A DNA stretch of 8,901 nt, from contig CAYSFJ010000014.1 in the NCBI GenBank assembly GCA_964430785.1, positions 13,856-22,756 of the forward strand, written 5' to 3'. The notes under the pieces are model-generated. The model saw only the letters and a list, made by a program, of their open reading frames with translations, was not told the origin of the DNA and made no database searches. Origin of the DNA: an uncultured Mycoplasma sp. (GTDB lineage Bacteria; Bacillota_I; Bacilli_A; RF39; UBA660). The position numbers and the translations under genes were made by a program. This document shows positions 1 through 8,901 of the stretch, piece after piece; position 1 is the stretch's first letter, and each line of letters begins with the position of its first letter.

Positions 1-1717
1 ATGAATAAGGCATTGGGTTAGGCATTTCCATCTTAACTATCATAGGTATTTTAAAGGCACTACCAAATGATACACAAGTTCCTGGCTGAAGTGTTTTCTG
101 CTTTTCAATAATGTCAGCACTAATGTTAGGTAGCATTTCAGAAATATATTTAATATCAAGAGGGTGTGTCATTTTAAAGATTAAGAAATTTGAACATTGG
201 GCAATAACTGTATCAGATATTTCTACTGGTCTTTGAGAAATAATATCAAGAATTACACCATATTTTCTACCCTCTTTAGCAATACGATCAAATATGTTAT
301 AACCTAGTAAGAATGTATCATTATCTTTTTGAATATATCTATGGGCTTCTTCCAAAAACAAATGGAATGGAATACTTGCTCTTTGTTCAAGAGATTTAGA
401 ATAGTCAAATAAGAATTTACACATTATTTTTACAATAACTTTAGCATAAATATCATCAACATCCTCGAGGTTAATATTAATTATTTGAGCCTTTTTACCA
501 TTAAATGATTTTAAAGCATCAATAAATTCATTATTTGTATAGTGTTTAGTTCCATCAAAATAATTACCAACTTCACTATGAAGTATTGTAGTAAGTCTAA
601 CCTTTAATATTGAGGCATCATCAACAAGAGTATCATTATGTAAAAATCCTTCAGAAATTAGAGTAAACTCCAATGCTTTAGAATAATCAAGTAATGAATA
701 AAACGCATTTTCATCTGGTGCTAAGTTTTCTATTTCATCATTAATATTTTTTAAAATATATTCAGTAATTAAAACACTTTCTCCAAAATAACCATTTGAA
801 TCAATTTCAAAACATTCTGAAAAACTTCTTGTATAACCAAGTCCTTGAATAGTTGAATCAAAATTAAATTCAGGTGTATGACAAGTTTCAATGATTGTAA
901 ATATTTCATTTTTCTTTTGTGCAGTAGTCTCTGATGAGAATAATACGGCAAGTAAAGCTTTAGCAATTAAATGATTTTTATATTTTCTAGATTCTGGTGT
1001 ATCTGTTGCAAATATTTTAACAAGTTTTAATGTCCTTTCTAGTATTGGAAGTTGAGTATGTTTGCTCGCTTGTAAAAGTAATGCATAATCATCAAGTTTT
1101 AATAAGTTAACTGGTATTTTAAGAGGTACATCTGTTGCCTCTTTAGGATTAGTTGTAATAAACTTATAATTATATTCTGGATCAATTGTATTAATTGAAC
1201 TAAAAGCATTTTTATATTCGCCATAAGCATCAAAAATAAACATATTAGCATTTTTTACTTTAGCAAATTTATTTAAAAATATATTTTGAACCATTCTTGA
1301 TACACCACATGATTTACCAGAACCAGTATTACCAAATATTGCTAAATGATTTGAAAATAAATCATTTATACTAGGACATACTGTAAAGTTTTTATAAATA
1401 GCACTTTGGCCAAGAACAAAACTACTTTCAGAATAAGTACCCACAAGTGCCATTAATTCCTCACCATTAATTATTCTAATAGTCGAAGATAAAAGTGGTT
1501 TTCTTAGTACACCATTTAAAAACCTATTACCTTGATATTCTCCAAGGAAACGAATTTTAATTTCACTGCTGTTAACCTCAGTTATTTCTCCTAAAATTCT
1601 TTCACCATTACTTTCAAATATTACATGCATATTCATTAAATCTGCTTGAACATTACTTCCAGCTAGATTTTGAACATATGCCATACTATCACTAATATAA
1701 AGTATCTTACCAAACAT
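1..1717 (-). CDS. HerA/DUF87-family P-loop ATPase (FtsK-HerA superfamily); C-terminus runs off the left edge
   Basis: Not in the supplied ORF track because it is open at the window edge. My translation from ATG 1717..1715 stays open for 572 codons down to position 1 (MFGKILYISDSMAYVQNLAG...). It shows Walker A AIFGNTGSGKS, Walker B HLFLEEAHRY, and the HerA-type block EGRKYGVILDIISQRP...QCSNFLIFKM...PGTCVSFG...MPNPMPYS. An AGGA ribosome-binding site lies about 6 nt upstream and overlaps the serpin stop codon. Confidence 0.8.
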   Translation of the reverse strand, partial: MFGKILYISDSMAYVQNLAGSNVQADLMNMHVIFESNGERILGEITEVNSSEIKIRFLGEYQGNRFLNGVLRKPLLSSTIRIINGEELMALVGTYSESSFVLGQSAIYKNFTVCPSINDLFSNHLAIFGNTGSGKSCGVSRMVQNIFLNKFAKVKNANMFIFDAYGEYKNAFSSINTIDPEYNYKFITTNPKEATDVPLKIPVNLLKLDDYALLLQASKHTQLPILERTLKLVKIFATDTPESRKYKNHLIAKALLAVLFSSETTAQKKNEIFTIIETCHTPEFNFDSTIQGLGYTRSFSECFEIDSNGYFGESVLITEYILKNINDEIENLAPDENAFYSLLDYSKALEFTLISEGFLHNDTLVDDASILKVRLTTILHSEVGNYFDGTKHYTNNEFIDALKSFNGKKAQIININLEDVDDIYAKVIVKIMCKFLFDYSKSLEQRASIPFHLFLEEAHRYIQKDNDTFLLGYNIFDRIAKEGRKYGVILDIISQRPVEISDTVIAQCSNFLIFKMTHPLDIKYISEMLPNISADIIEKQKTLQPGTCVSFGSAFKIPMIVKMEMPNPMPYS

Positions 1718-1725
1718 AATTTTTC

Positions 1726-2901
1726 CTACCCTTCACACACATCTTTATTTTCATCATACTCTATAGGATCATATATAGTGCCCATAAAATAAATATTGTT
1801 ACTTCCCTTTTTTCTAATTAAATATACAAATGGTTTATCAAAATTGACATATTTTATTTCCTCAACAGTGGCAGAACTAGTACCATAAGTATTTCCAGTA
1901 GCCGCAGCTGCTTTAGTACCTGTTTCCATAAAATCTATATAAGTTTTTTGTATTATACTGCTAACATAAATATCATCTGCTATACCTTTTAAATTAGCTT
2001 TTTCTTTATCAAACATATCTTTAACTCCAAGATTTAATAAAATACCTTCTAAATTATCTACAACATATTCATATTTAAATCTAGGTATTGCTATCTTTGC
2101 ATAATCACTTGTAATAGAATTATTTATTACATCATTTGACAAATTATTAATTACATCACTAACATCATTTTTAGGAAGAAGTGCTATAAATTCAAATTGT
2201 GTATCATCAGAAAGTTTTTCATAATTTTTAATAAATCCAGTATAATAATCACTTTCTATATATATTTCTTCAGAGGACATCATATAAACATTTTTATCTA
2301 AAAATTTACCATTATATGTTTTATTACAATCAAAAGTATCTTCCCATTTAAAATTAATACCAATAGCATTTAACAAAGCCATGACAGTATCAGAGTTAAT
2401 ACTTTCATCCGAAAATAATTGATTTATCATTCCATATGTCTTTTGAGAAACCCAATTATTTATATTACTGACATTATCAAAATTATCATATATTAGCTCA
2501 CTATAATAATTAATTTTTAATGCATTACTATATGAACTATTAATATCATTTTTATATTTATTATTAATCCAGATACTATTAGCCATTGATATTTTACCTT
2601 CAATATTTTCCATGGCTTGTAATTCATAATTATCAAGAGCAATATTAAGTTCAGATAAAGTGTTTTCTTTTGCACCACTTTGAATCATTGATAATACATA
2701 TGCTAAAGATATTGGACTTACTAAACTATTATTATTAATATCTATTTGTTTTATAAATTTATAATCAAAATTATTATTTTTATTAACAGAAATAGTAGGT
2801 GTAGAAATTTCTTTCTTATTATGCACTATATAACCAGTTAATAAAAATATACTACATATCAAAAGAGCTCCAATTACAAATAATAATTCTTTTTTTTTCA
2901 T
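1726..2901 (-). CDS. Serpin-family protease inhibitor with N-terminal signal/membrane anchor
   Basis: 391-aa ORF. The N-terminus MKKKELLFVIGALLICSIFLLTGYIV is hydrophobic. The serpin N-terminal signature is SPISLAYVLSMIQSGAKENTLSEL. The hinge and reactive-centre loop read ETGTKAAAATGNTYGTSSATVEE, followed by FDKPFVYLIRK...IYFMGTIYDP. An AGGA RBS lies 7 nt upstream of the ATG. Confidence 0.9.
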   Translation of the reverse strand: MKKKELLFVIGALLICSIFLLTGYIVHNKKEISTPTISVNKNNNFDYKFIKQIDINNNSLVSPISLAYVLSMIQSGAKENTLSELNIALDNYELQAMENIEGKISMANSIWINNKYKNDINSSYSNALKINYYSELIYDNFDNVSNINNWVSQKTYGMINQLFSDESINSDTVMALLNAIGINFKWEDTFDCNKTYNGKFLDKNVYMMSSEEIYIESDYYTGFIKNYEKLSDDTQFEFIALLPKNDVSDVINNLSNDVINNSITSDYAKIAIPRFKYEYVVDNLEGILLNLGVKDMFDKEKANLKGIADDIYVSSIIQKTYIDFMETGTKAAAATGNTYGTSSATVEEIKYVNFDKPFVYLIRKKGSNNIYFMGTIYDPIEYDENKDVCEG

Positions 2902-3007: not shown

Positions 3008-4141
3008 TTAACTTCCAAGAATTATCTTATATGGATTACCCTCAGAACCATCTCCTGATATAACATATACATTAGATTTAAGATATAAGACTGGCCTAAC
3101 TGCAAAACCGCGATACGCAATGTCGCTGTAGAGACCGCCATCGTTGTCGACGTTAACAGGGCTTGAAGCATTGTAAGCTGTCATTGTCCATTCATATCCT
3201 TTTGTAAATAACCAATTGTTTTTATAACTGCTATTCATTGCATAACCATAATCACTTGCATACATTAAACCGACCTTTAAAGTAGTACTTGTTTGACTAG
3301 TTTTTTCTTTCTCATATTGAGTTTTACCGGTAGTTGTTGATGAACTACCATCAAAACCAATATTCCAATATATCCCATCATATATCATATTATAATAATC
3401 TCCACTTGAGGCTATACCATTTTCAGTATAATCACATTTGGCAACTGGTTTATATGAACTAGTGTAACATGAATAGCAATACGCTGCACAAGTAGTATTA
3501 TTTCTACTATTAATTTGGCCTAAAAAGCATTCATTTAAATTTTTTTGAATTGTGCTTCCAACCCAAGTAGAACTAGATGTTGTATTTGCATTATATGAAA
3601 GTCCTCCTATTGAATCATTTCTTATTATTTTAACAAGTCCATTATTATTCCAAGTTGAACAAGTTCCATCGGTATTTATAGCTGTACATACTGGAGTTTT
3701 ACCAATTATTCTATAAAGCTCACCATTATACCAAATATAATTATTAGGGTTATTTCCTTTATATCTAACTCCATAATCTGATTTATATAAAAGCCCATTT
3801 CCACTTACAACTCCATCCGTACTTGTTGTATTAACTACATTAGAAAGAAGTTTAGGACTACTTGTAAATGATACATTACAACTTACATTTCCAGTAATAT
3901 TTTTAATATCTAATTTCCAATTATCAATATCCCATACTCCATCAGCATTATCACAGTTTATATCTATTTGATATAAACCTTTACTAGGAAATGTATTAGA
4001 TACTTTACCATCAACAAGTAAAGCAATAGTACTTCCATTATAACCAAATGTCTTTTTAGGTTTATTACTAATTACTAATAAAGTACATATCATTATAACA
4101 ATTAATATTGTACATATAATAATCTTCTTATTATTTTTCAT
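3008..4141 (-). CDS. DGR variable (target) protein 1: N-terminal membrane anchor, Cys-rich C-terminal putative C-type-lectin-fold domain carrying VR1
   Basis: 377-aa ORF with a TM/signal anchor KKIIICTILIVIMICTLLVI. The C-terminal module (NPNNYIWYNGELYRIIG...VGLMYASDYGYA...NNWLF..EWTMTAY) is paralogous to the one in 6581..8290. VR1 encodes ASSPVNVDNDGGLYSDIAYRGFAV. The start overlaps the stop of the upstream ORF (ATGAAAAATAA). Confidence 0.9.
   Translation of the reverse strand: MKNNKKIIICTILIVIMICTLLVISNKPKKTFGYNGSTIALLVDGKVSNTFPSKGLYQIDINCDNADGVWDIDNWKLDIKNITGNVSCNVSFTSSPKLLSNVVNTTSTDGVVSGNGLLYKSDYGVRYKGNNPNNYIWYNGELYRIIGKTPVCTAINTDGTCSTWNNNGLVKIIRNDSIGGLSYNANTTSSSTWVGSTIQKNLNECFLGQINSRNNTTCAAYCYSCYTSSYKPVAKCDYTENGIASSGDYYNMIYDGIYWNIGFDGSSSTTTGKTQYEKEKTSQTSTTLKVGLMYASDYGYAMNSSYKNNWLFTKGYEWTMTAYNASSPVNVDNDGGLYSDIAYRGFAVRPVLYLKSNVYVISGDGSEGNPYKIILGS
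3098..3170 (-). repeat. DGR variable repeat VR1
   Basis: Aligns without gaps to the TR (4558..4630, offset 1460). There are 11 mismatches, each at a plus-strand T of the TR, which is an A on the coding strand. They fall at TR positions 4565, 4571, 4572, 4580, 4584, 4586, 4590, 4594, 4602, 4608 and 4622. Confidence 0.92.
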
Positions 4142-4400
4142 TTAATAACCTTCTTTCTAATATATTAATTAAATTTACTTTGAAATAATAATTTAAATAA
4201 TTATTATTTTCATATTCCTTTTTTACTATAATATCTAACTTATCTAATATTATATAATTAGTTTCATACTTATTTAAATTTTTATTTATATAATTAAATA
4301 TTAACTTATCTTCATCAAAAGTATAATATTTATTATTTTTAATTATTAATATTAAATAATTTTGATAAATATGTTTTAAAACATTATATCTTTCTTTCAT
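4131..4400 (-). CDS. Small MutS-domain-I-like (MSL-like) protein, truncated paralog of 6072..6392
   Basis: 89 aa. YNVLKHIYQNYLILIIKNNKYYTFDEDKLIFNYI matches the pattern of the E. coli MutS N-terminus ([37 protein letters not shown], from memory). It also matches the paralog's FLILYKNHGKFYQCRDMDAYIMNLL. The stop overlaps the target-1 start, suggesting translational coupling. No clear Shine-Dalgarno sequence was seen. Confidence 0.55.
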   Translation of the reverse strand: MKERYNVLKHIYQNYLILIIKNNKYYTFDEDKLIFNYINKNLNKYETNYIILDKLDIIVKKEYENNNYLNYYFKVNLINILERRLLNEK

Positions 4401-4411
4401 ATTATTTTATT

Positions 4412-4452
4412 AGATGTCGATAGAAAGAGTACGTATACTCTTTCGTCCATCT
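4412..4452 (-). other. Strong imperfect hairpin in the non-coding spacer downstream of the TR
   Basis: A 9-bp stem pairs gaaagagta (4423..4431) with tactctttc (4436..4444) around the loop cgta. An outer 5-bp stem pairs agatg (4412..4416) with catct (4448..4452), with 2 more bp across the internal loop. No T-run follows on the minus strand, so it does not look like a classical terminator. Confidence 0.45.
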
Positions 4453-4557: not shown

Positions 4558-4630
4558 AACTGCATAACCGTTATACGCATTGTTGTTGTTGAGTCCGCCA
4601 TTGTTGTTGACGTTAACAGGGTTTGAAGCA
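4558..4630 (-). repeat. DGR template repeat (TR), non-coding
   Basis: Coding-sense sequence is GGTGCTTCAAACCCTGTTAACGTCAACAACAATGGCGGACTCAACAACAACAATGCGTATAACGGTTATGCAGTT. In the VR frame it reads G A S N P V N V N N N G G L N N N N A Y N G Y A V. It has 25 adenines, 20 of them in 10 AAC/AAT codons. It matches both VRs except at adenines. It begins 32 nt after the RT stop codon. Confidence 0.92.
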
Positions 4631-4662
4631 CCTTTTTTCTAAAAAACTTCCCTATATTTATA

Positions 4663-5724
4663 TTAATAGTACCTATCAATAATATGTTTTATTTTATCTT
4701 TATTTACAAAACTATAACTATGTAAATAATTTTCTAAAGAATAAAAATATTTTTCAAATGTAATCATATTATTTTGATACCTATAAATATCTTTCTTAAT
4801 ACCTTTTTTTATATTATTTCTTGCACTTTTACTTAAATTAATAATAGTTTTATTATTAATTATTCTAAAATTATAACCTAGAAAATCAAATCCATTTTTT
4901 AAGTTTACAATATAAGTTTTCTTTTCATTTATTTCTAAATTATAGGAATGAATAAAATCTATAATTTTATTTTTACATATTTTCAAATAATCTAAATCAT
5001 TTGAAAATATTACATAATCATCCATATATGAAAGCATATATTTTAAATGTAAATTATGAATTATATAATGATGTAATTTATATAAATAAAATATAGCAAA
5101 AAATTGTTGTACTTGGCCTCCTAAAGAAAGACCAACATCTTTTTTATATCTAGGTAATTTTTCATTAACGTTTTTTTCTAATACAACTATTTTATCATTA
5201 ATATAATCATAGTTAGTGCTATCAATTATTTTGCAAACTAAGTTATATTCTTCACTAGTTAAATCATTTATTATTAAAGATTTTAAAATATTATGATCAA
5301 TAGAATAAAAATATTTTTTTATATCAATTTTTAATACATAAATATCTTTATTACAGTGTTTTAGCTTTTCAATATCAGAAAGTAATAAGTTAATAGCATA
5401 TGTTAATCCCATACCCTTTCTTGTTGCAGTTATTTCCTTACACAAGTATTTTGAAAGTTTGGGAATCAAAATATATTTTGCTACATAATGATTAATAATT
5501 TTATTAATTATACTTTCACTCATAACAACTCTAACTTTTGGTTCTCTTACTACGAAAATATTATAACTACTACCTTGATATAAGCCATTTTCTAAAATAT
5601 TTATTATATAAACTAAATACTCTATTTTACATTTTTCAAATGCAAGAATTTTCTTTCTATTTTTCACTCCTTTCAATATTTCATTATTATATATATCTAA
5701 TAAATCACTTATTTTTACTATCAT
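4663..5724 (-). CDS. DGR reverse transcriptase
   Basis: 353 aa. RT motifs seen: KVRVVMSESIINKIINHYVAKYIL (motifs 1/2), YVLKIDIKKYFYSIDHNIL (motif 3), GLSLGGQVQQFFAIFYL (motif 4, DGR-type I/LGxxxSQ with S replaced by Q), SYMDDYVIFS (catalytic YxDD) and INEKKTYIV..GFDFLGYNF (motifs 6/7). The start overlaps the avd 3' end by 20 nt, and the TR lies immediately downstream. Confidence 0.95.
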   Translation of the reverse strand: MIVKISDLLDIYNNEILKGVKNRKKILAFEKCKIEYLVYIINILENGLYQGSSYNIFVVREPKVRVVMSESIINKIINHYVAKYILIPKLSKYLCKEITATRKGMGLTYAINLLLSDIEKLKHCNKDIYVLKIDIKKYFYSIDHNILKSLIINDLTSEEYNLVCKIIDSTNYDYINDKIVVLEKNVNEKLPRYKKDVGLSLGGQVQQFFAIFYLYKLHHYIIHNLHLKYMLSYMDDYVIFSNDLDYLKICKNKIIDFIHSYNLEINEKKTYIVNLKNGFDFLGYNFRIINNKTIINLSKSARNNIKKGIKKDIYRYQNNMITFEKYFYSLENYLHSYSFVNKDKIKHIIDRYY

Positions 5725-6088
5725 AGTCTATCTTATTATCTAACCATTTATTACACATTCGATTTATTTCAGACAACTTATATGAAACTTTTTTTAATGA
5801 TGTTTCAGCAATATAACCTTTAATAAATAATCTTTCTATAATGTAATCAATAGTATTTATAAGTGCATTTATTTCTACTTTATATGAACTTATTAATTTA
5901 TAATTATCTTCATTATTAGTTTTATTTATAAAATACAATAATTCTATAGATAACTCCTTTAATTTATTTTTATAAAAATAATCTTTTTTAGGAATATTTT
6001 CTATTATCTTATCTAGAATATTCATAAAATCTTTATACTTAGTTAGTATTAAAAATTCTTTAGATGATGCATTATTTTCTAAGTTCAT
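5705..6088 (-). CDS. avd: Avd (accessory variability determinant), four-helix-bundle family
   Basis: 127 aa, a typical Avd size, located directly upstream of and overlapping the RT. ILTKYKDFMNILDKIIENIPKKDYF resembles the Bordetella phage bAvd segment ending in IPRKH (from memory). LSEINRMCNKWLDN resembles the bAvd C-terminal helix. The C-terminal tail is basic. Confidence 0.8.
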   Translation of the reverse strand: MNLENNASSKEFLILTKYKDFMNILDKIIENIPKKDYFYKNKLKELSIELLYFINKTNNEDNYKLISSYKVEINALINTIDYIIERLFIKGYIAETSLKKVSYKLSEINRMCNKWLDNKIDYDSKNK

Positions 6089-6392
6089 TTTCTATTAAAC
6101 CTATTATTTGTTCAAGTTTTTCATTTGAGCATTTATTTAAATTATCAATTAAATAATCTAATCTTTTCCTTTTATCTAAATTTTTTAATGCTAAATCTAA
6201 ATATTTTGGATAATTATTTAGTTTATCAAAATTCTTAATAACAGGATTTTTATCTACCTCAATAATTTGATAAGATATTTTAGCATCTTCCAAAGTATTT
6301 AAAACTTTTACTAAACTATTATCAGGAAATCCACATAAACCATCTTTGAGTACCTTATAACCAAATAGTAAATTCATAATATAAGCATCCAT
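6072..6392 (-). CDS. MutS-domain-I-like (MSL-like) DGR accessory protein; the ORF as called is 5'-truncated by a frame break
   Basis: LLFGYKVLKDGLCGFPDNSLVKVLNTLEDAKISYQIIE matches the pattern of MutS domain I (LLDISLTKRG...[29 protein letters not shown]). The homologous reading frame continues upstream of ATG 6392 (…NVKSFLILYKNHGKFYQCRD-MDAY…) with no start codon until a TAA at 6468..6470. An RBS-preceded ATG at 6510 lies in a different frame. Confidence 0.7.
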   Translation of the reverse strand: MDAYIMNLLFGYKVLKDGLCGFPDNSLVKVLNTLEDAKISYQIIEVDKNPVIKNFDKLNNYPKYLDLALKNLDKRKRLDYLIDNLNKCSNEKLEQIIGLIENELRK

Positions 6393-6444
6393 ATCTCTAC
6401 ATTGATAAAATTTACCATGATTTTTATAAAGTATTAGAAATGAC

Positions 6445-6495
6445 TTTACATTAGTACCCCCCCGACTTTACATTTTCTTTACATTCATTTACATT
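6445..6495 (-). repeat. Four phased copies of the octamer TTTACATT (minus strand AATGTAAA)
   Basis: Copies lie at 6445..6452, 6467..6474, 6478..6485 and 6488..6495, with spacings of 22, 11 and 10 nt. The first two extend to an 11-mer, gactttacatt (6442..6452 and 6464..6474), and they flank the homopolymer. Confidence 0.6.
6457..6463 (-). repeat. C7 (minus strand G7) homopolymer at the frame break of the MSL-like gene
   Basis: Plus strand reads gtaCCCCCCCgac. It is the longest G/C homopolymer I noticed in this very AT-rich window. Losing one G would join the ATG-6510 frame to the 6072..6392 frame. Confidence 0.9.
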
Positions 6496-6540
6496 TTTAA
6501 ATAAGCTCATTTTTTTCCGTCCTTTCAAATTATTTATTTT

Positions 6541-6573
6541 TTTCAAAATCGGCTTCACAATGCGAAGCACGAT
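6541..6573 (-). terminator. Conserved GC-rich hairpin / weak terminator after target gene 2
   Basis: The hairpin is the same as at 2982..3007, with a single loop difference (a2995 versus t6561). The stem pairs 6548..6556 with 6564..6573. Only about 4 T residues follow on the minus strand, so read-through into the MSL-avd-RT operon is plausible. Confidence 0.5.
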
Positions 6574-6580
6574 TTATTAT

Positions 6581-8290
6581 TTACATTCCCAATACGTATG
6601 GGCTTGCCATTGTTCCATCACCAGACAATTTATTAACATTAGATTGAAGATACAAGACTGGCCGAACTGCATAACCGATATACGCATAGAGGTTGTTGAG
6701 CCCGCCACCGTAGTAGACGTCAACAGGGTGCGAAGCTCTGTAAGCTGTCATTGTCCATTCATAACTTTGACCAAATAGCCAATTATTAACCATTTGACTA
6801 TTAGCACTTCCATAACCCAAATTTCCAGTATAACTACTTATAGCATAGCCAAAATCGCTTGCATACATAAGTCCTACCATAGTATTTTCTGAAGTTTGTT
6901 TTGTTATCTCTTTAGCATAAAAATTACTTGAAGATAAACTATATGAATTAGCCATTCCAATGTTATAATAAACGCTTTCTATTATAGTACCATAACTATC
7001 ATTTTCATTAATACCATTTTGTGAATAATTACATACACCTTGATTAGTTGAATATGCATAGCAATATTTTGAACAACCATCTTTTTTACCTAAATAACAT
7101 GTATTTAAAAGTCCTTGAATACTGCTTCCATTCCAAGTTGAATTACCGGTTATATTGTAAGCATATGCTCCGATTGGATCAGCTTTAATAATTTTAACTC
7201 TATTTTCCCATTTAGTACACTGTGCTTCACCTTGTTTAAATGATATTCCGTCAATTGTAGTATCCTCAGTGATAGGATTAACCTCTAAACATACTGGTAC
7301 ATAACCAATAATTCTCCACAACTCATTATTAAAATATACATAATTATTTGGATTATTACCTTGATATCTATATTGATTTGTATTATTATCTGTTACATTA
7401 GTTATTACACCATCCCCAGATGTACCAATACCATTTATAATAACATCTGATAAAAGTGTACCAGTTACATTACTAGATGTAATAAGTGATGCACTTGCAC
7501 CATCATTTGCACCATTTTTAATTGAAATCATTTTATTAATATTATCCCACTCAATATCCGAAGAATTAATGCCACTTAAACTAGATAATGAATAATTACT
7601 ATTAGGATTATTATATGGATCTTGGGCAACATTTATATTTATTTGATTTACTGGTTCAGTTTGATAACAAGTAATATTTGTCACATTAAATACTCCAGAA
7701 TATTTTTTATTCTTTAAATTAGATTGATCATATGCTAAATTATAAAATTTAGTATTTATAGTCCAGTTATGTACTGAAGTGCTACCTTTTTTAGAATTAG
7801 ATATTTTTGCATTTTTTACTACAGTCATATTTGCTGAAGGAAAATCATCCTCACTTAAAAATTCATTACTACCCACTTCTGGACCTATAACTTGTAATGT
7901 AAATTCTTTAAAAGTTCCACTTGTTTTCGTAGTATATTTATCTGAAGAACTATCATAAGTAAAATTAATATCATAAGTACATGTTATTCCTACTTTATCA
8001 CTATTAGCATCTAAACTTACATTTAACATGCTTGTGCTACTAGCAATATAATTTGAACTAGTTTCCTCAGTCATATTGTATGGATCAACTGTTATTGAAA
8101 AGTTTGTTGATGTAGTATCAAGTACAGCATTATCTATTTTATTTGCAGTAATATTAACGTTCATAACATTATTTAAATTTACATCAAACATTCCTAAGTA
8201 TCCAAAAGATACCGTTATGGCTAGTACTAATGTAATTATAATTGATAATATTAATACTTTCTTCTTATCATCTATTTTCTTCATAATCAT
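6581..8290 (-). CDS. DGR variable (target) protein 2: membrane anchor, long N/S/T-rich ectodomain, Cys-rich C-terminal putative lectin-fold domain carrying VR2
   Basis: 569-aa ORF with TM anchor VLILSIIITLVLAITVSFGYLG. The C-terminal module (NPNNYVYFNNELWRIIG...VGLMYASDFGYA...NNWLF..EWTMTAY) is paralogous to target 1. VR2 encodes ASHPVDVYYGGGLNNLYAYIGYAV. The true start is probably the second ATG (8284), because the AGGA RBS is only 2 nt from ATG 8290 but 8 nt from ATG 8284. Confidence 0.9.
   Translation of the reverse strand: MIMKKIDDKKKVLILSIIITLVLAITVSFGYLGMFDVNLNNVMNVNITANKIDNAVLDTTSTNFSITVDPYNMTEETSSNYIASSTSMLNVSLDANSDKVGITCTYDINFTYDSSSDKYTTKTSGTFKEFTLQVIGPEVGSNEFLSEDDFPSANMTVVKNAKISNSKKGSTSVHNWTINTKFYNLAYDQSNLKNKKYSGVFNVTNITCYQTEPVNQININVAQDPYNNPNSNYSLSSLSGINSSDIEWDNINKMISIKNGANDGASASLITSSNVTGTLLSDVIINGIGTSGDGVITNVTDNNTNQYRYQGNNPNNYVYFNNELWRIIGYVPVCLEVNPITEDTTIDGISFKQGEAQCTKWENRVKIIKADPIGAYAYNITGNSTWNGSSIQGLLNTCYLGKKDGCSKYCYAYSTNQGVCNYSQNGINENDSYGTIIESVYYNIGMANSYSLSSSNFYAKEITKQTSENTMVGLMYASDFGYAISSYTGNLGYGSANSQMVNNWLFGQSYEWTMTAYRASHPVDVYYGGGLNNLYAYIGYAVRPVLYLQSNVNKLSGDGTMASPYVLGM
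6665..6736 (-). repeat. DGR variable repeat VR2
   Basis: Aligns without gaps to the TR (offset 2107). There are 12 mismatches, all at TR coding-strand adenines: TR positions 4571, 4581, 4583, 4584, 4594, 4601, 4602, 4605, 4608, 4614, 4623 and 4624. Homology ends at TR 4629/4630. Confidence 0.92.
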
Positions 8291-8406: not shown

Positions 8407-8901
8407 TTAATTAGCTATTTTAAATTCCCTTGCAAATATTCTTTCATCAGAACAGTACTCAATTATATATTTATTATTTCTAGCACATATTATTATTCCA
8501 ATAGTTTTATCATCAGTTATATCTTTTATATTTTTATCAATATAGTTCATATAAACTTGTATTTGTCCAATATGTTCTTTTTTTAGTTCAGTAACTTTGA
8601 GTTCAATAACTACAAAACATTTATATTTAAAGTTATATAAAAGTAAATCTATATAATTATAATTATTTCCAAGTTTTATTTTATATTCGTTCCCAGCATA
8701 AGTAAAACCGTTACCTAACCCTTTTAAAAAGTTATCTAAGTTATTAAGTATCGCCTCTTTAAGGGTATATTCAGTTATTTTTTCTTGATTGTTTTTACTT
8801 TTAATTAATATTGGATTTGGAACTAAATCAGGTAATTTTAATTCTTCATTTGTAATTAATTTATTTTTAGTTTCCTCGCTAAGTTTTTCATATTCTTTAG
8901 A
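8407..8901 (-). CDS. YhcG/DUF1016-family PDDEXK nuclease domain protein, C-terminal part (N-terminus off the right edge)
   Basis: Not in the supplied track. My translation from 8901 is open for 164 codons to TAA at 8409..8407. It reads ...FLKGLGNGFTYAGNEYKIKLGNNYNYIDLLLYNFKYKCFVVIELKVTELKKEHIGQIQVYMNYID...TIGIIICARNNKYIIEYC. This matches the E. coli YhcG C-terminal pattern (GFAFVGRQ...DLLFYH..L.CYVVIELK...GKLNFY...IGLLLC, from memory). Confidence 0.8.
   Translation of the reverse strand, partial: SKEYEKLSEETKNKLITNEELKLPDLVPNPILIKSKNNQEKITEYTLKEAILNNLDNFLKGLGNGFTYAGNEYKIKLGNNYNYIDLLLYNFKYKCFVVIELKVTELKKEHIGQIQVYMNYIDKNIKDITDDKTIGIIICARNNKYIIEYCSDERIFAREFKIAN

Follow-up and report, generated by a model that had tools for sequence, protein, structure and literature searches.

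Among the accessory genes of diversity-generating retroelements (DGRs), the MutS-like (MSL) class has been named since 2018 and remains functionally unexplained. Wu et al. 2018 (PMC5758913) reported the class in 16 DGRs, as proteins of 112-283 amino acids (aa) whose genes were in every case accompanied by avd and in none by HRDC, without settling what they do; later papers, among them a preprint that names the Msl proteins of the Bacteroides Bfr, Bth and Bun DGRs (bioRxiv 10.1101/2024.11.15.621889), mention Msl without assaying its function. Here we describe a stretch of 8,901 nucleotides (nt) of contig CAYSFJ010000014.1, which comes from a low-GC, uncultured lineage of gut Bacilli resembling 'Mycoplasma sp. 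CAG:472'. This stretch, called the window below, holds a complete, genuine two-target DGR with two small MutS-related open reading frames (ORFs), which we refer to as ORF-A (the MSL gene) and ORF-B. All coordinates of the window are positions within its 8,901 nt, and all of the DGR genes lie on the minus strand.

Like the published MSL proteins, the product of ORF-A is small, consists of MutS domain I only, and is encoded inside a DGR cassette beside avd, with no HRDC gene. Two features distinguish the present locus: MSL is consistently paired with a family of shortened paralogues (ORF-B, at 89 aa, falls under the published range of 112-283 aa), and the 5' end of MSL, its leader, carries a simple-sequence repeat that shifts the reading frame and probably controls the gene. 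Neither the paired paralogue nor the repeat is mentioned in the MSL literature that we searched.

Our starting point was a sequence-only reading of the window, which had picked out two ORFs (4131..4400 and 6072..6392, the latter with an upstream extension), had taken them for paralogues resembling the mismatch-binding domain of MutS, and had pointed to an MSL class noted in DGR surveys. That class is real, being the one of Wu et al., and both ORFs are present on the minus strand at these positions.

Two domain I derivatives of MutS in one DGR cassette

The 106-aa ORF at 6072..6392 begins at an internal ATG and is what remains of a longer one, as the mention of an upstream extension had implied. 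The true start of ORF-A is the ATG at 6510, preceded at a distance of about 10 nt by a Shine-Dalgarno-like motif (AAAGGA), and the gene is interrupted by a frameshift at a run of seven G residues (G7). With one G removed from this run, ORF-A yields a 145-aa product; an intact homologue (P0001) has 146 aa and 93% identity to it.

Eight of 12 ORF-A homologues match the Pfam family MutS_I (PF01624, curated cut-off 20.6 bits), the best of them with an E value of 6.3e-8; the window's own ORF-A sequence gives no match to MutS_I at E<=10. Compared with PDB sequences, the ORF-A family profile has MSH6 domain I as its best match, and in hhalign it aligns to residues 23-99 of E. coli MutS, so that the earlier statement that the longer product tracks MutS residues ~26-100 was accurate. 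The AlphaFold model of ORF-A has a predicted local distance difference test score (pLDDT) of 79.8, with leader residues 1-20 at 37 and predicted to be disordered. When this model was compared with the PDB by Foldseek, the best 50 matches were all domain I of MutS or MSH proteins, headed by 1wbd_B (E 2.5e-4, probability 1.00, 70 columns, root-mean-square deviation [rmsd] 2.1 A).

MutS wedges the Phe of its Phe-X-Glu motif into DNA at the mismatch. The residue equivalent to this Phe (F36 in MutS) is invariant in a diverse MSL alignment, and the position of E38 is occupied by Q, N, V, H, Y or C. Set beside domain I of MutS and MSH6 (PF01624), the MSL protein has the same fold, covers MutS residues 23-99 and keeps the Phe, and it is without helix A, the N-terminal helix of MutS. 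ORF-A, with 145 aa, homology to MutS, an avd gene present and no HRDC match, is a stand-alone MutS domain I and belongs to the MSL accessory class already known from DGRs.

ORF-B has 83 close homologues, and in an exhaustive profile search at E<=1e-3 its family comes to at least 183 sequence clusters, whose representatives are with few exceptions 80-110 aa long and in no case a full-length MutS. Its AlphaFold2 (AF2) model, built on a 128-sequence alignment, has a pLDDT of 94.4 and a predicted template modelling score (pTM) of 0.82, and the predicted elements run H2-11, E16-21, E24-26, H29-37, E49-53, E56-61 and H68-88. The relationship between ORF-A and ORF-B depends on the depth of the comparison. 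Pairwise BLASTP of the two is not significant (E 0.4), and hhalign of shallow profiles, made from close homologues only, gives a probability of 0.3%. A deep ORF-B profile against the close MSL set reaches 59.9% (E 8.7e-5), and the 128-sequence ORF-B family against the diverse MSL alignment of five lineages reaches 89.9% (E 1.7e-6), with a score of 41.8 across 68 collinear columns that are broken by one large gap. When the columns of the MSL alignment were shuffled 200 times as a control, the highest score was 23.2 and the median 11.5; reversing the alignment gave 12.3. The ORF-B hidden Markov model (HMM) also matches the MSL ORFs of other DGRs, at up to 20 bits and E 4e-6. The proposed paralogy of the two products is therefore upheld by the deep-profile comparison.

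The connection between ORF-B and MutS itself is less direct. Weak matches to Pfam MutS_I are given by 29 of the 128 family members at E<=1 (best 9.6e-4), and no other Pfam family is matched by more than 2 of them; in two members, residues 1-34 lie in register with positions 2-36 of the MutS_I model, at 15.3 and 14.9 bits, which is below the curated cut-off. The best Foldseek match of the ORF-B model is domain I of MSH3 (8om9 chain B, MutSbeta; E 0.47, probability 0.91, TMq 0.57, rmsd 2.3 A, 85 columns), and only MutS-family entries of the PDB reach a TMq of at least 0.47, the remainder lying at 0.2-0.3. Profile searches of PDB sequences with ORF-B found no MutS, and hhalign of the ORF-B profile with the single E. 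coli MutS sequence covers just 30 columns (E 0.029). Because this direct alignment is weak, the link of ORF-B to MutS rests on its match to MSL, on the weak Pfam pattern and on the fold. The idea that both proteins would be recognised as MutS_I relatives by profile and by structure thus held for the ORF-A family, by profile through 8 of its 12 members and not through the window's own sequence; for ORF-B the profile matches are weak, and the structural match is good by TMq but not by E value.

One could argue from these results that the likeness of ORF-B to MutS and MSL is an artefact of composition, and that ORF-B is an unrelated, DGR-linked small protein rich in Lys, Asn, Ile and Tyr. The non-significant pairwise and shallow-profile comparisons, the absence of MutS from the PDB-sequence search, the Foldseek E value and the sub-cut-off Pfam scores would all be expected under such a view. 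Yet the shuffled alignments have the same composition as the real one and none of the 200 approaches its score, nor does the reversed alignment; the 29 members that match Pfam do so in the same family and the same register; and every structurally good match in the PDB belongs to the MutS family. We consider an artefact very improbable. Judged by these comparisons, ORF-B is a real gene and a shortened homologue of MSL; the papers that we searched do not describe it, and it appears to be new.

The helix A-beta1-beta2-helix B order is common to MutS and the mini-proteins, and the two have departed from the parent domain at different places. ORF-B retains the pattern of the MutS N-terminal helix (RY..lK..YPd, compared with QY..LK..HPE in MutS), the same helix that MSL is without, a difference that the sequence-only reading had passed over. 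That reading had observed that the 89-aa copy lacks a G.P...L..L segment, and indeed the beta3-beta4-alphaC (G-F-P) block is missing from ORF-B in both the alignment, as a gap, and the predicted secondary structure. The beta1-beta2 hairpin of ORF-B is shorter by one residue, which leaves the equivalence to F36 and E38 ambiguous by one position among three alignments; of the 128 sequences, 89 (70%) have an aromatic residue at position 25 and 91 have Thr or Ser at position 27. The claim that both copies keep the aromatic residue and lose the Glu consequently stands for MSL, and for ORF-B it is subject to this one-residue uncertainty of register.

Pfam scans found no matches to the MutS_II-V domains in either MSL or ORF-B, and the AF2 models of both consist of a single small domain plus helices. 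At 145 and 89 aa, and with the connector, core/clamp, ABC ATPase, HTH and dimerisation domains absent, neither has the composition of a functional MutS or MutS2. Both proteins are basic, with an isoelectric point (pI) of about 9. Both mini-proteins are domain-I-only derivatives of MutS, co-encoded in DGR cassettes.

Co-occurrence with DGRs had been put forward as a check on this pair, and the association proved to be conserved. MSL and ORF-B are found together with Avd and the reverse transcriptase (RT) in five diverged lineages and in three gene orders. With T1 and T2 standing for the two target genes and TR for the template repeat, the order T1-MSL-Avd-RT-TR-ORF-B-T2 is present in 14 of 14 related loci (L001-L014), which take in loci with ORF-B identity down to ~55% and three chromosomal neighbourhoods. 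More distant relatives show T1-MSL-Avd-RT-ORF-B-T2 (P0122), MSL-Avd-ORF-B-RT (P0136 and P0204) or ORF-B followed by MSL (P0237). On every contig of sufficient length, MSL, ORF-B, Avd and RT are all present. The named hosts of the related loci are uncultured gut Bacilli metagenome-assembled genomes and 'Mycoplasma sp. CAG:472'.

A length-variable repeat at the 5' end of MSL

The sequence-only reading had called for a repaired version of the upstream ORF; it had not recognised that the lesion is a poly-G tract of variable length, whose effect in the majority of assemblies is to put the gene out of frame. The G7 tract is the sole G run of at least 5 in the window, and a G run of at least 7 is extremely improbable by chance at ~22% GC. 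We compared the tract across 28 assemblies that are independent of one another, all of them consensus sequences: the window, L001-4, L009-11 and L026-45. Its length lies between about G4 and G11, and within identical flanks it can be G8, G9, G10 or G11. The leader ATG is in the frame of the domain in 6 of the 28 alleles, one of them interrupted by a nonsense codon; loci with the leader in frame are L011, L029, L033, L036 and L045. Twenty alleles are out of frame, nine at offset 1, nine at offset 2 and two without a leader ATG. In the two remaining alleles, which we term locked, the tract is swapped for CCCTAGGTGGTGGT (GGT-GGT-GGT) and the gene has its own new in-frame ATG.

The whole 127-codon domain ORF is kept in 14 of the 20 out-of-frame alleles; among the 20, L028 keeps the domain with a variant C-terminus and L032 ends at the end of its contig. 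Extra lesions occur in 4 of the 20 out-of-frame alleles and in 2 of the 8 that are in frame or locked. Two sister lineages have other repeats at the 5' end of MSL, namely (AACAC)x9.4 in L012 (4886-4932) and a 17-nt unit repeated 2.4 times in L014 (4872-4912), and in both of them the MSL start codon and the domain are in different frames. Because frameshifts in both directions (+1 and -1) occur with many tract lengths, we favour DNA slippage as their source and reject the alternative that the ribosome is programmed to shift frame at the G run.

These features are those of simple-sequence contingency loci, such as the poly-G/C tracts of Campylobacter and the penta- and tetranucleotide repeats of Neisseria and Haemophilus: a non-triplet repeat lies in the 5' coding region, and its length polymorphism places the gene in ON and OFF frames among strains. 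From this pattern the variable repeat is likely to be a phase-variation switch on MSL, with the G7 allele of the window in the OFF state. Known contingency loci are mostly genes for surface structures or restriction-modification, whereas this one is an accessory gene of a hypermutation system; and the variation here is known from differences between assemblies alone, not from switching within a population. Our literature search found no paper that links phase variation to DGR accessory genes. Should the 5' repeat be confirmed as a switch, it would be, to our knowledge, the first known case of a contingency locus controlling a diversity-generating element.

Several observations weigh against a switch and are those that would be expected if MSL, here and in most assemblies, were a decaying pseudogene, with neutral indels or errors of assembly behind the differences in its poly-G tract. 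The fraction of alleles with the leader in frame (6/28) is close to the chance expectation of 1/3; additional stops or frameshifts are present in 6 of the 28 MSL alleles, which relaxed selection or decay would also produce; RT and MSL are both broken in four related loci (L005-L008); and assembly errors in long G runs could inflate the variation of the tract, several contigs being of low coverage. Decay does not, however, readily account for a full-length, highly conserved domain ORF in most of the out-of-frame alleles, nor for extra lesions that are as frequent where the gene is in frame or locked. It also leaves unaddressed why three different non-triplet repeats should occupy the equivalent 5' position in sister lineages, why locked alleles with a new ATG exist, and why so improbable a G run should be the only one of its kind in the window. 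On this balance we think a pseudogene unlikely and retain the phase-variation switch as our reading of the repeat.

The four loci just mentioned have a related cassette in a different context, with RNase HII, LtaS and TopA genes upstream. Across the cassette (~6100-7650 in each), the RT ORF is ~220-250 aa compared with 353 aa in the window, and MSL is broken by several frameshifts; ORF-B and both target genes are intact. L005-L008 look like decaying DGRs.

Possible roles in targeted hypermutation

Recent work indicates that host MutS limits the output of DGRs, and engineered DGRs need mismatch repair to be disabled. Deletion of mutS in B. ovatus raised mutagenesis of the variable repeat (VR) 5-10 fold and revealed all-or-nothing repair (bioRxiv 10.1101/2024.11.15.621889); for engineered DGRs in E. 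coli, a dominant-negative MutL was added. We propose that the probable substrate of the MSL/ORF-B pair is the DNA intermediate of targeted hypermutation, with its many mismatches. How the pair would act there is a matter for more caution. The likeliest of the roles considered, though short of probable, is one that the sequence-only reading had also suggested: MSL and ORF-B would protect the heteroduplex of complementary DNA (cDNA) and VR from mismatch repair, with MSL switched by its repeat. The two proteins, probably jointly, would bind the mismatch-dense cDNA:VR heteroduplex that arises from mutagenic retrohoming; an occupied heteroduplex would keep host MutS from restoring the parental VR sequence, and with MutS kept away more retrohoming events would survive. 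The slippage-prone 5' repeat would govern expression of MSL and thereby place what the DGR produces under a stochastic switch. Because MSL and ORF-B have neither an ATPase nor a region for coupling to MutL, they would be expected to block host MutS and not to trigger repair. According to the titles of PDB entries, MutS with E38Q, E38T or E38A has still been crystallised on a G.T mismatch, so that loss of Glu38 alone need not abolish mismatch binding.

Such protection would follow the same logic as MutL E32K, used in recombineering and in engineered DGRs, where mismatched intermediates survive when mismatch repair is blocked. MutL E32K is engineered and acts genome-wide, whereas MSL and ORF-B are natural, derived from MutS and presumably local to the DGR in their action. 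A more specific form of the proposal, which we regard as doubtful, is that the two proteins constitute a heteromeric 'decoy MutS head' that shields the heteroduplex and is phase-variable through the leader repeat. Two complementary partial copies of domain I would then provide stochastic on/off or gain control over DGR diversification. One subunit of MutS-family dimers contacts the mismatch and the other only the backbone. As with the asymmetric domain I pairs of MutS dimers, MSH2-MSH6 and MSH2-MSH3, two diverged domain I modules are co-encoded here, MSL with the conserved Phe and ORF-B with a degenerate hairpin and MSH3 as its best fold match; MutS dimers, however, are joined through domains that are absent from MSL and ORF-B, and a heterodimer here is pure speculation.

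A number of points count against a protective role. MutS is dispensable for retrohoming of the Bordetella phage (Wu et al. 2018, PMC5758913), and in an E. coli insertion-repair assay a mutS deletion made no difference. Glu38 has been lost and ORF-B is without about one third of the domain, changes that neofunctionalisation would fit equally well, and the idea of protection from mismatch repair would fail if the reduced-genome host had no MutS/MutL. The main rival to the shield, one that we take seriously while judging it somewhat unlikely, is that MSL and ORF-B are nucleic-acid cofactors of the RT-Avd-TR RNA complex that re-use the domain I fold independently of mismatch repair. They might bind the RNA:cDNA hybrid, the TR RNA, or the initiation of mutagenic homing (IMH) element or hairpin of the target, and thereby guide integration of the cDNA. 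The absence of a conserved Glu38 from MSL, the remodelled hairpin region of ORF-B and its missing beta3-beta4-alphaC block are in keeping with a new function, as are the basic character of both proteins, the constant company of Avd with MSL, and the location of ORF-B between Avd and RT, in the core of the cassette, in some lineages. Against a cofactor role, the Phe that forms the wedge in MutS is the one residue invariant in MSL besides structural Gly and Phe/Tyr positions, published data show that host MutS does act on DGR intermediates, and no RNA-binding motif was found in the proteins.

Quite improbable, in our estimation, is a third role, put forward in the sequence-only reading, by which MSL and ORF-B would recruit or redirect repair or recombination and bias which strand of the heteroduplex is retained, without blocking MutS. 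The all-or-nothing repair in Bacteroides does show that the choice of strand counts. The MutS connector domain, however, carries the surface for interaction with MutL, and MSL (145 aa) and ORF-B (89 aa) comprise just domain I and helical tails; no connector domain, ATPase or clamp-binding motif was detected in either. Returning to the shield, two complementary fragments of the MutS head in natural DGRs would provide a concrete hypothesis for how a DGR copes with mismatch repair, and MSL and ORF-B, as small parts found in nature, might be of use in DGR-based directed evolution, improving it while the cell at large is kept from becoming a mutator.

Cassette layout and neighbouring genes

Read along the minus strand, the cassette contains target 1, ORF-A, Avd, RT, TR, ORF-B and target 2; the coordinates are collected in Table 1. 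The Avd-like protein matches Pfam bAvd with an E value of 4.9e-7 and 30.7 bits, under the 40-bit curated cut-off, and the position of its gene is constant across all related loci. When the 73-nt core of the repeats was counted by hand, VR1 differed from TR at 12 TR adenines and at one position at the 5' boundary, and VR2 at 11 positions, every one a TR adenine. A script count over a 79-nt span, which takes in 6 non-homologous bases at the 5' boundary, gave 15 (VR1) and 14 (VR2) differences at TR adenines and 2 others in each. Identity between TR and the VRs stops after GCAGTT, which is followed by GGCCAG in the VRs and by TTTAGAG in TR. Differences that fall almost wholly at TR adenines, together with the RT and Avd matches, identify the locus as a bona fide DGR.

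Table 1. Features of the cassette and its flanks, as positions in the 8,901-nt window.
Feature	Position	Strand	Description
Target gene 1	8290..6581	-	569 aa, N-terminal membrane anchor; VR1 at 3' end
VR1	6665..6737	-	3' end of target gene 1
ORF-A (MSL), interrupted gene	6510..6072	-	Start ATG 6510
MSL leader	6451..6510	-	ATG 6510, 19 codons (MSLFKNVNECKENVKSGGY), TAA; domain in the other frame here
G7 homopolymer	6457..6463	-	Inside MSL 5' coding region; frameshift site
ORF-A domain frame (MSL coding region)	6072..6467	-	Open from just past poly-G to stop
Avd-like accessory gene	5705..6088	-	127 aa; overlaps MSL stop and RT start
DGR reverse transcriptase	4663..5724	-	353 aa; Pfam RVT_1, E 1.2e-16
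TR	4558..4632	-	AAC-rich, downstream of RT gene
Perfect stem	4423-4444	-	Between TR and ORF-B
ORF-B	4131..4400	-	89 aa; 11-nt overlap with start of target gene 2
Target gene 2	3008..4141	-	377 aa, paralogue of target 1; VR2 at 3' end
VR2	3098..3170	-	3' end of target gene 2
Serpin gene	1726-2901	-	Directly downstream of the DGR
Partial gene	1-1735	-	Cut by window end
Partial gene	8407-8901	-	Cut by window end

Both target proteins have N-terminal hydrophobic anchors and are paralogous to each other, and neither has a Pfam match. The Pfam scan found no HRDC match among the proteins of the window, and Rfam and tRNA scans of the window gave no matches. The perfect stem between TR and ORF-B has 9 bp and a 4-nt loop (GAAAGAGTA-TACG-TACTCTTTC), and the 75-nt region around it has a folding energy of -15 kcal/mol (z = -2.9). 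The stem sequence is identical in 14 related loci, and being invariant it offers no covariation to read; candidate roles are those of an RNA element of the DGR, a terminator and a processing site.

The serpin directly downstream of the DGR (Pfam Serpin, E 5.9e-60) has an N-terminal hydrophobic segment, and related loci have other genes in its place, for example one for a 1974-aa protein. An alternative genetic code, considered for the seemingly ORF-free left flank, was rejected, the flank being occupied by a 577-aa ORF that runs out of the window end. The two genes cut by the window ends encode a HerA/DUF87-type ATPase (E 8.5e-23) and a YhcG-type PDDEXK nuclease (E 1.2e-36). Finally, the DGR cassette of L001-L004 adjoins Bro-N and Abi_2 (abortive-infection) genes at 1-2050 of those loci, which hints at a mobile or defence-island setting.

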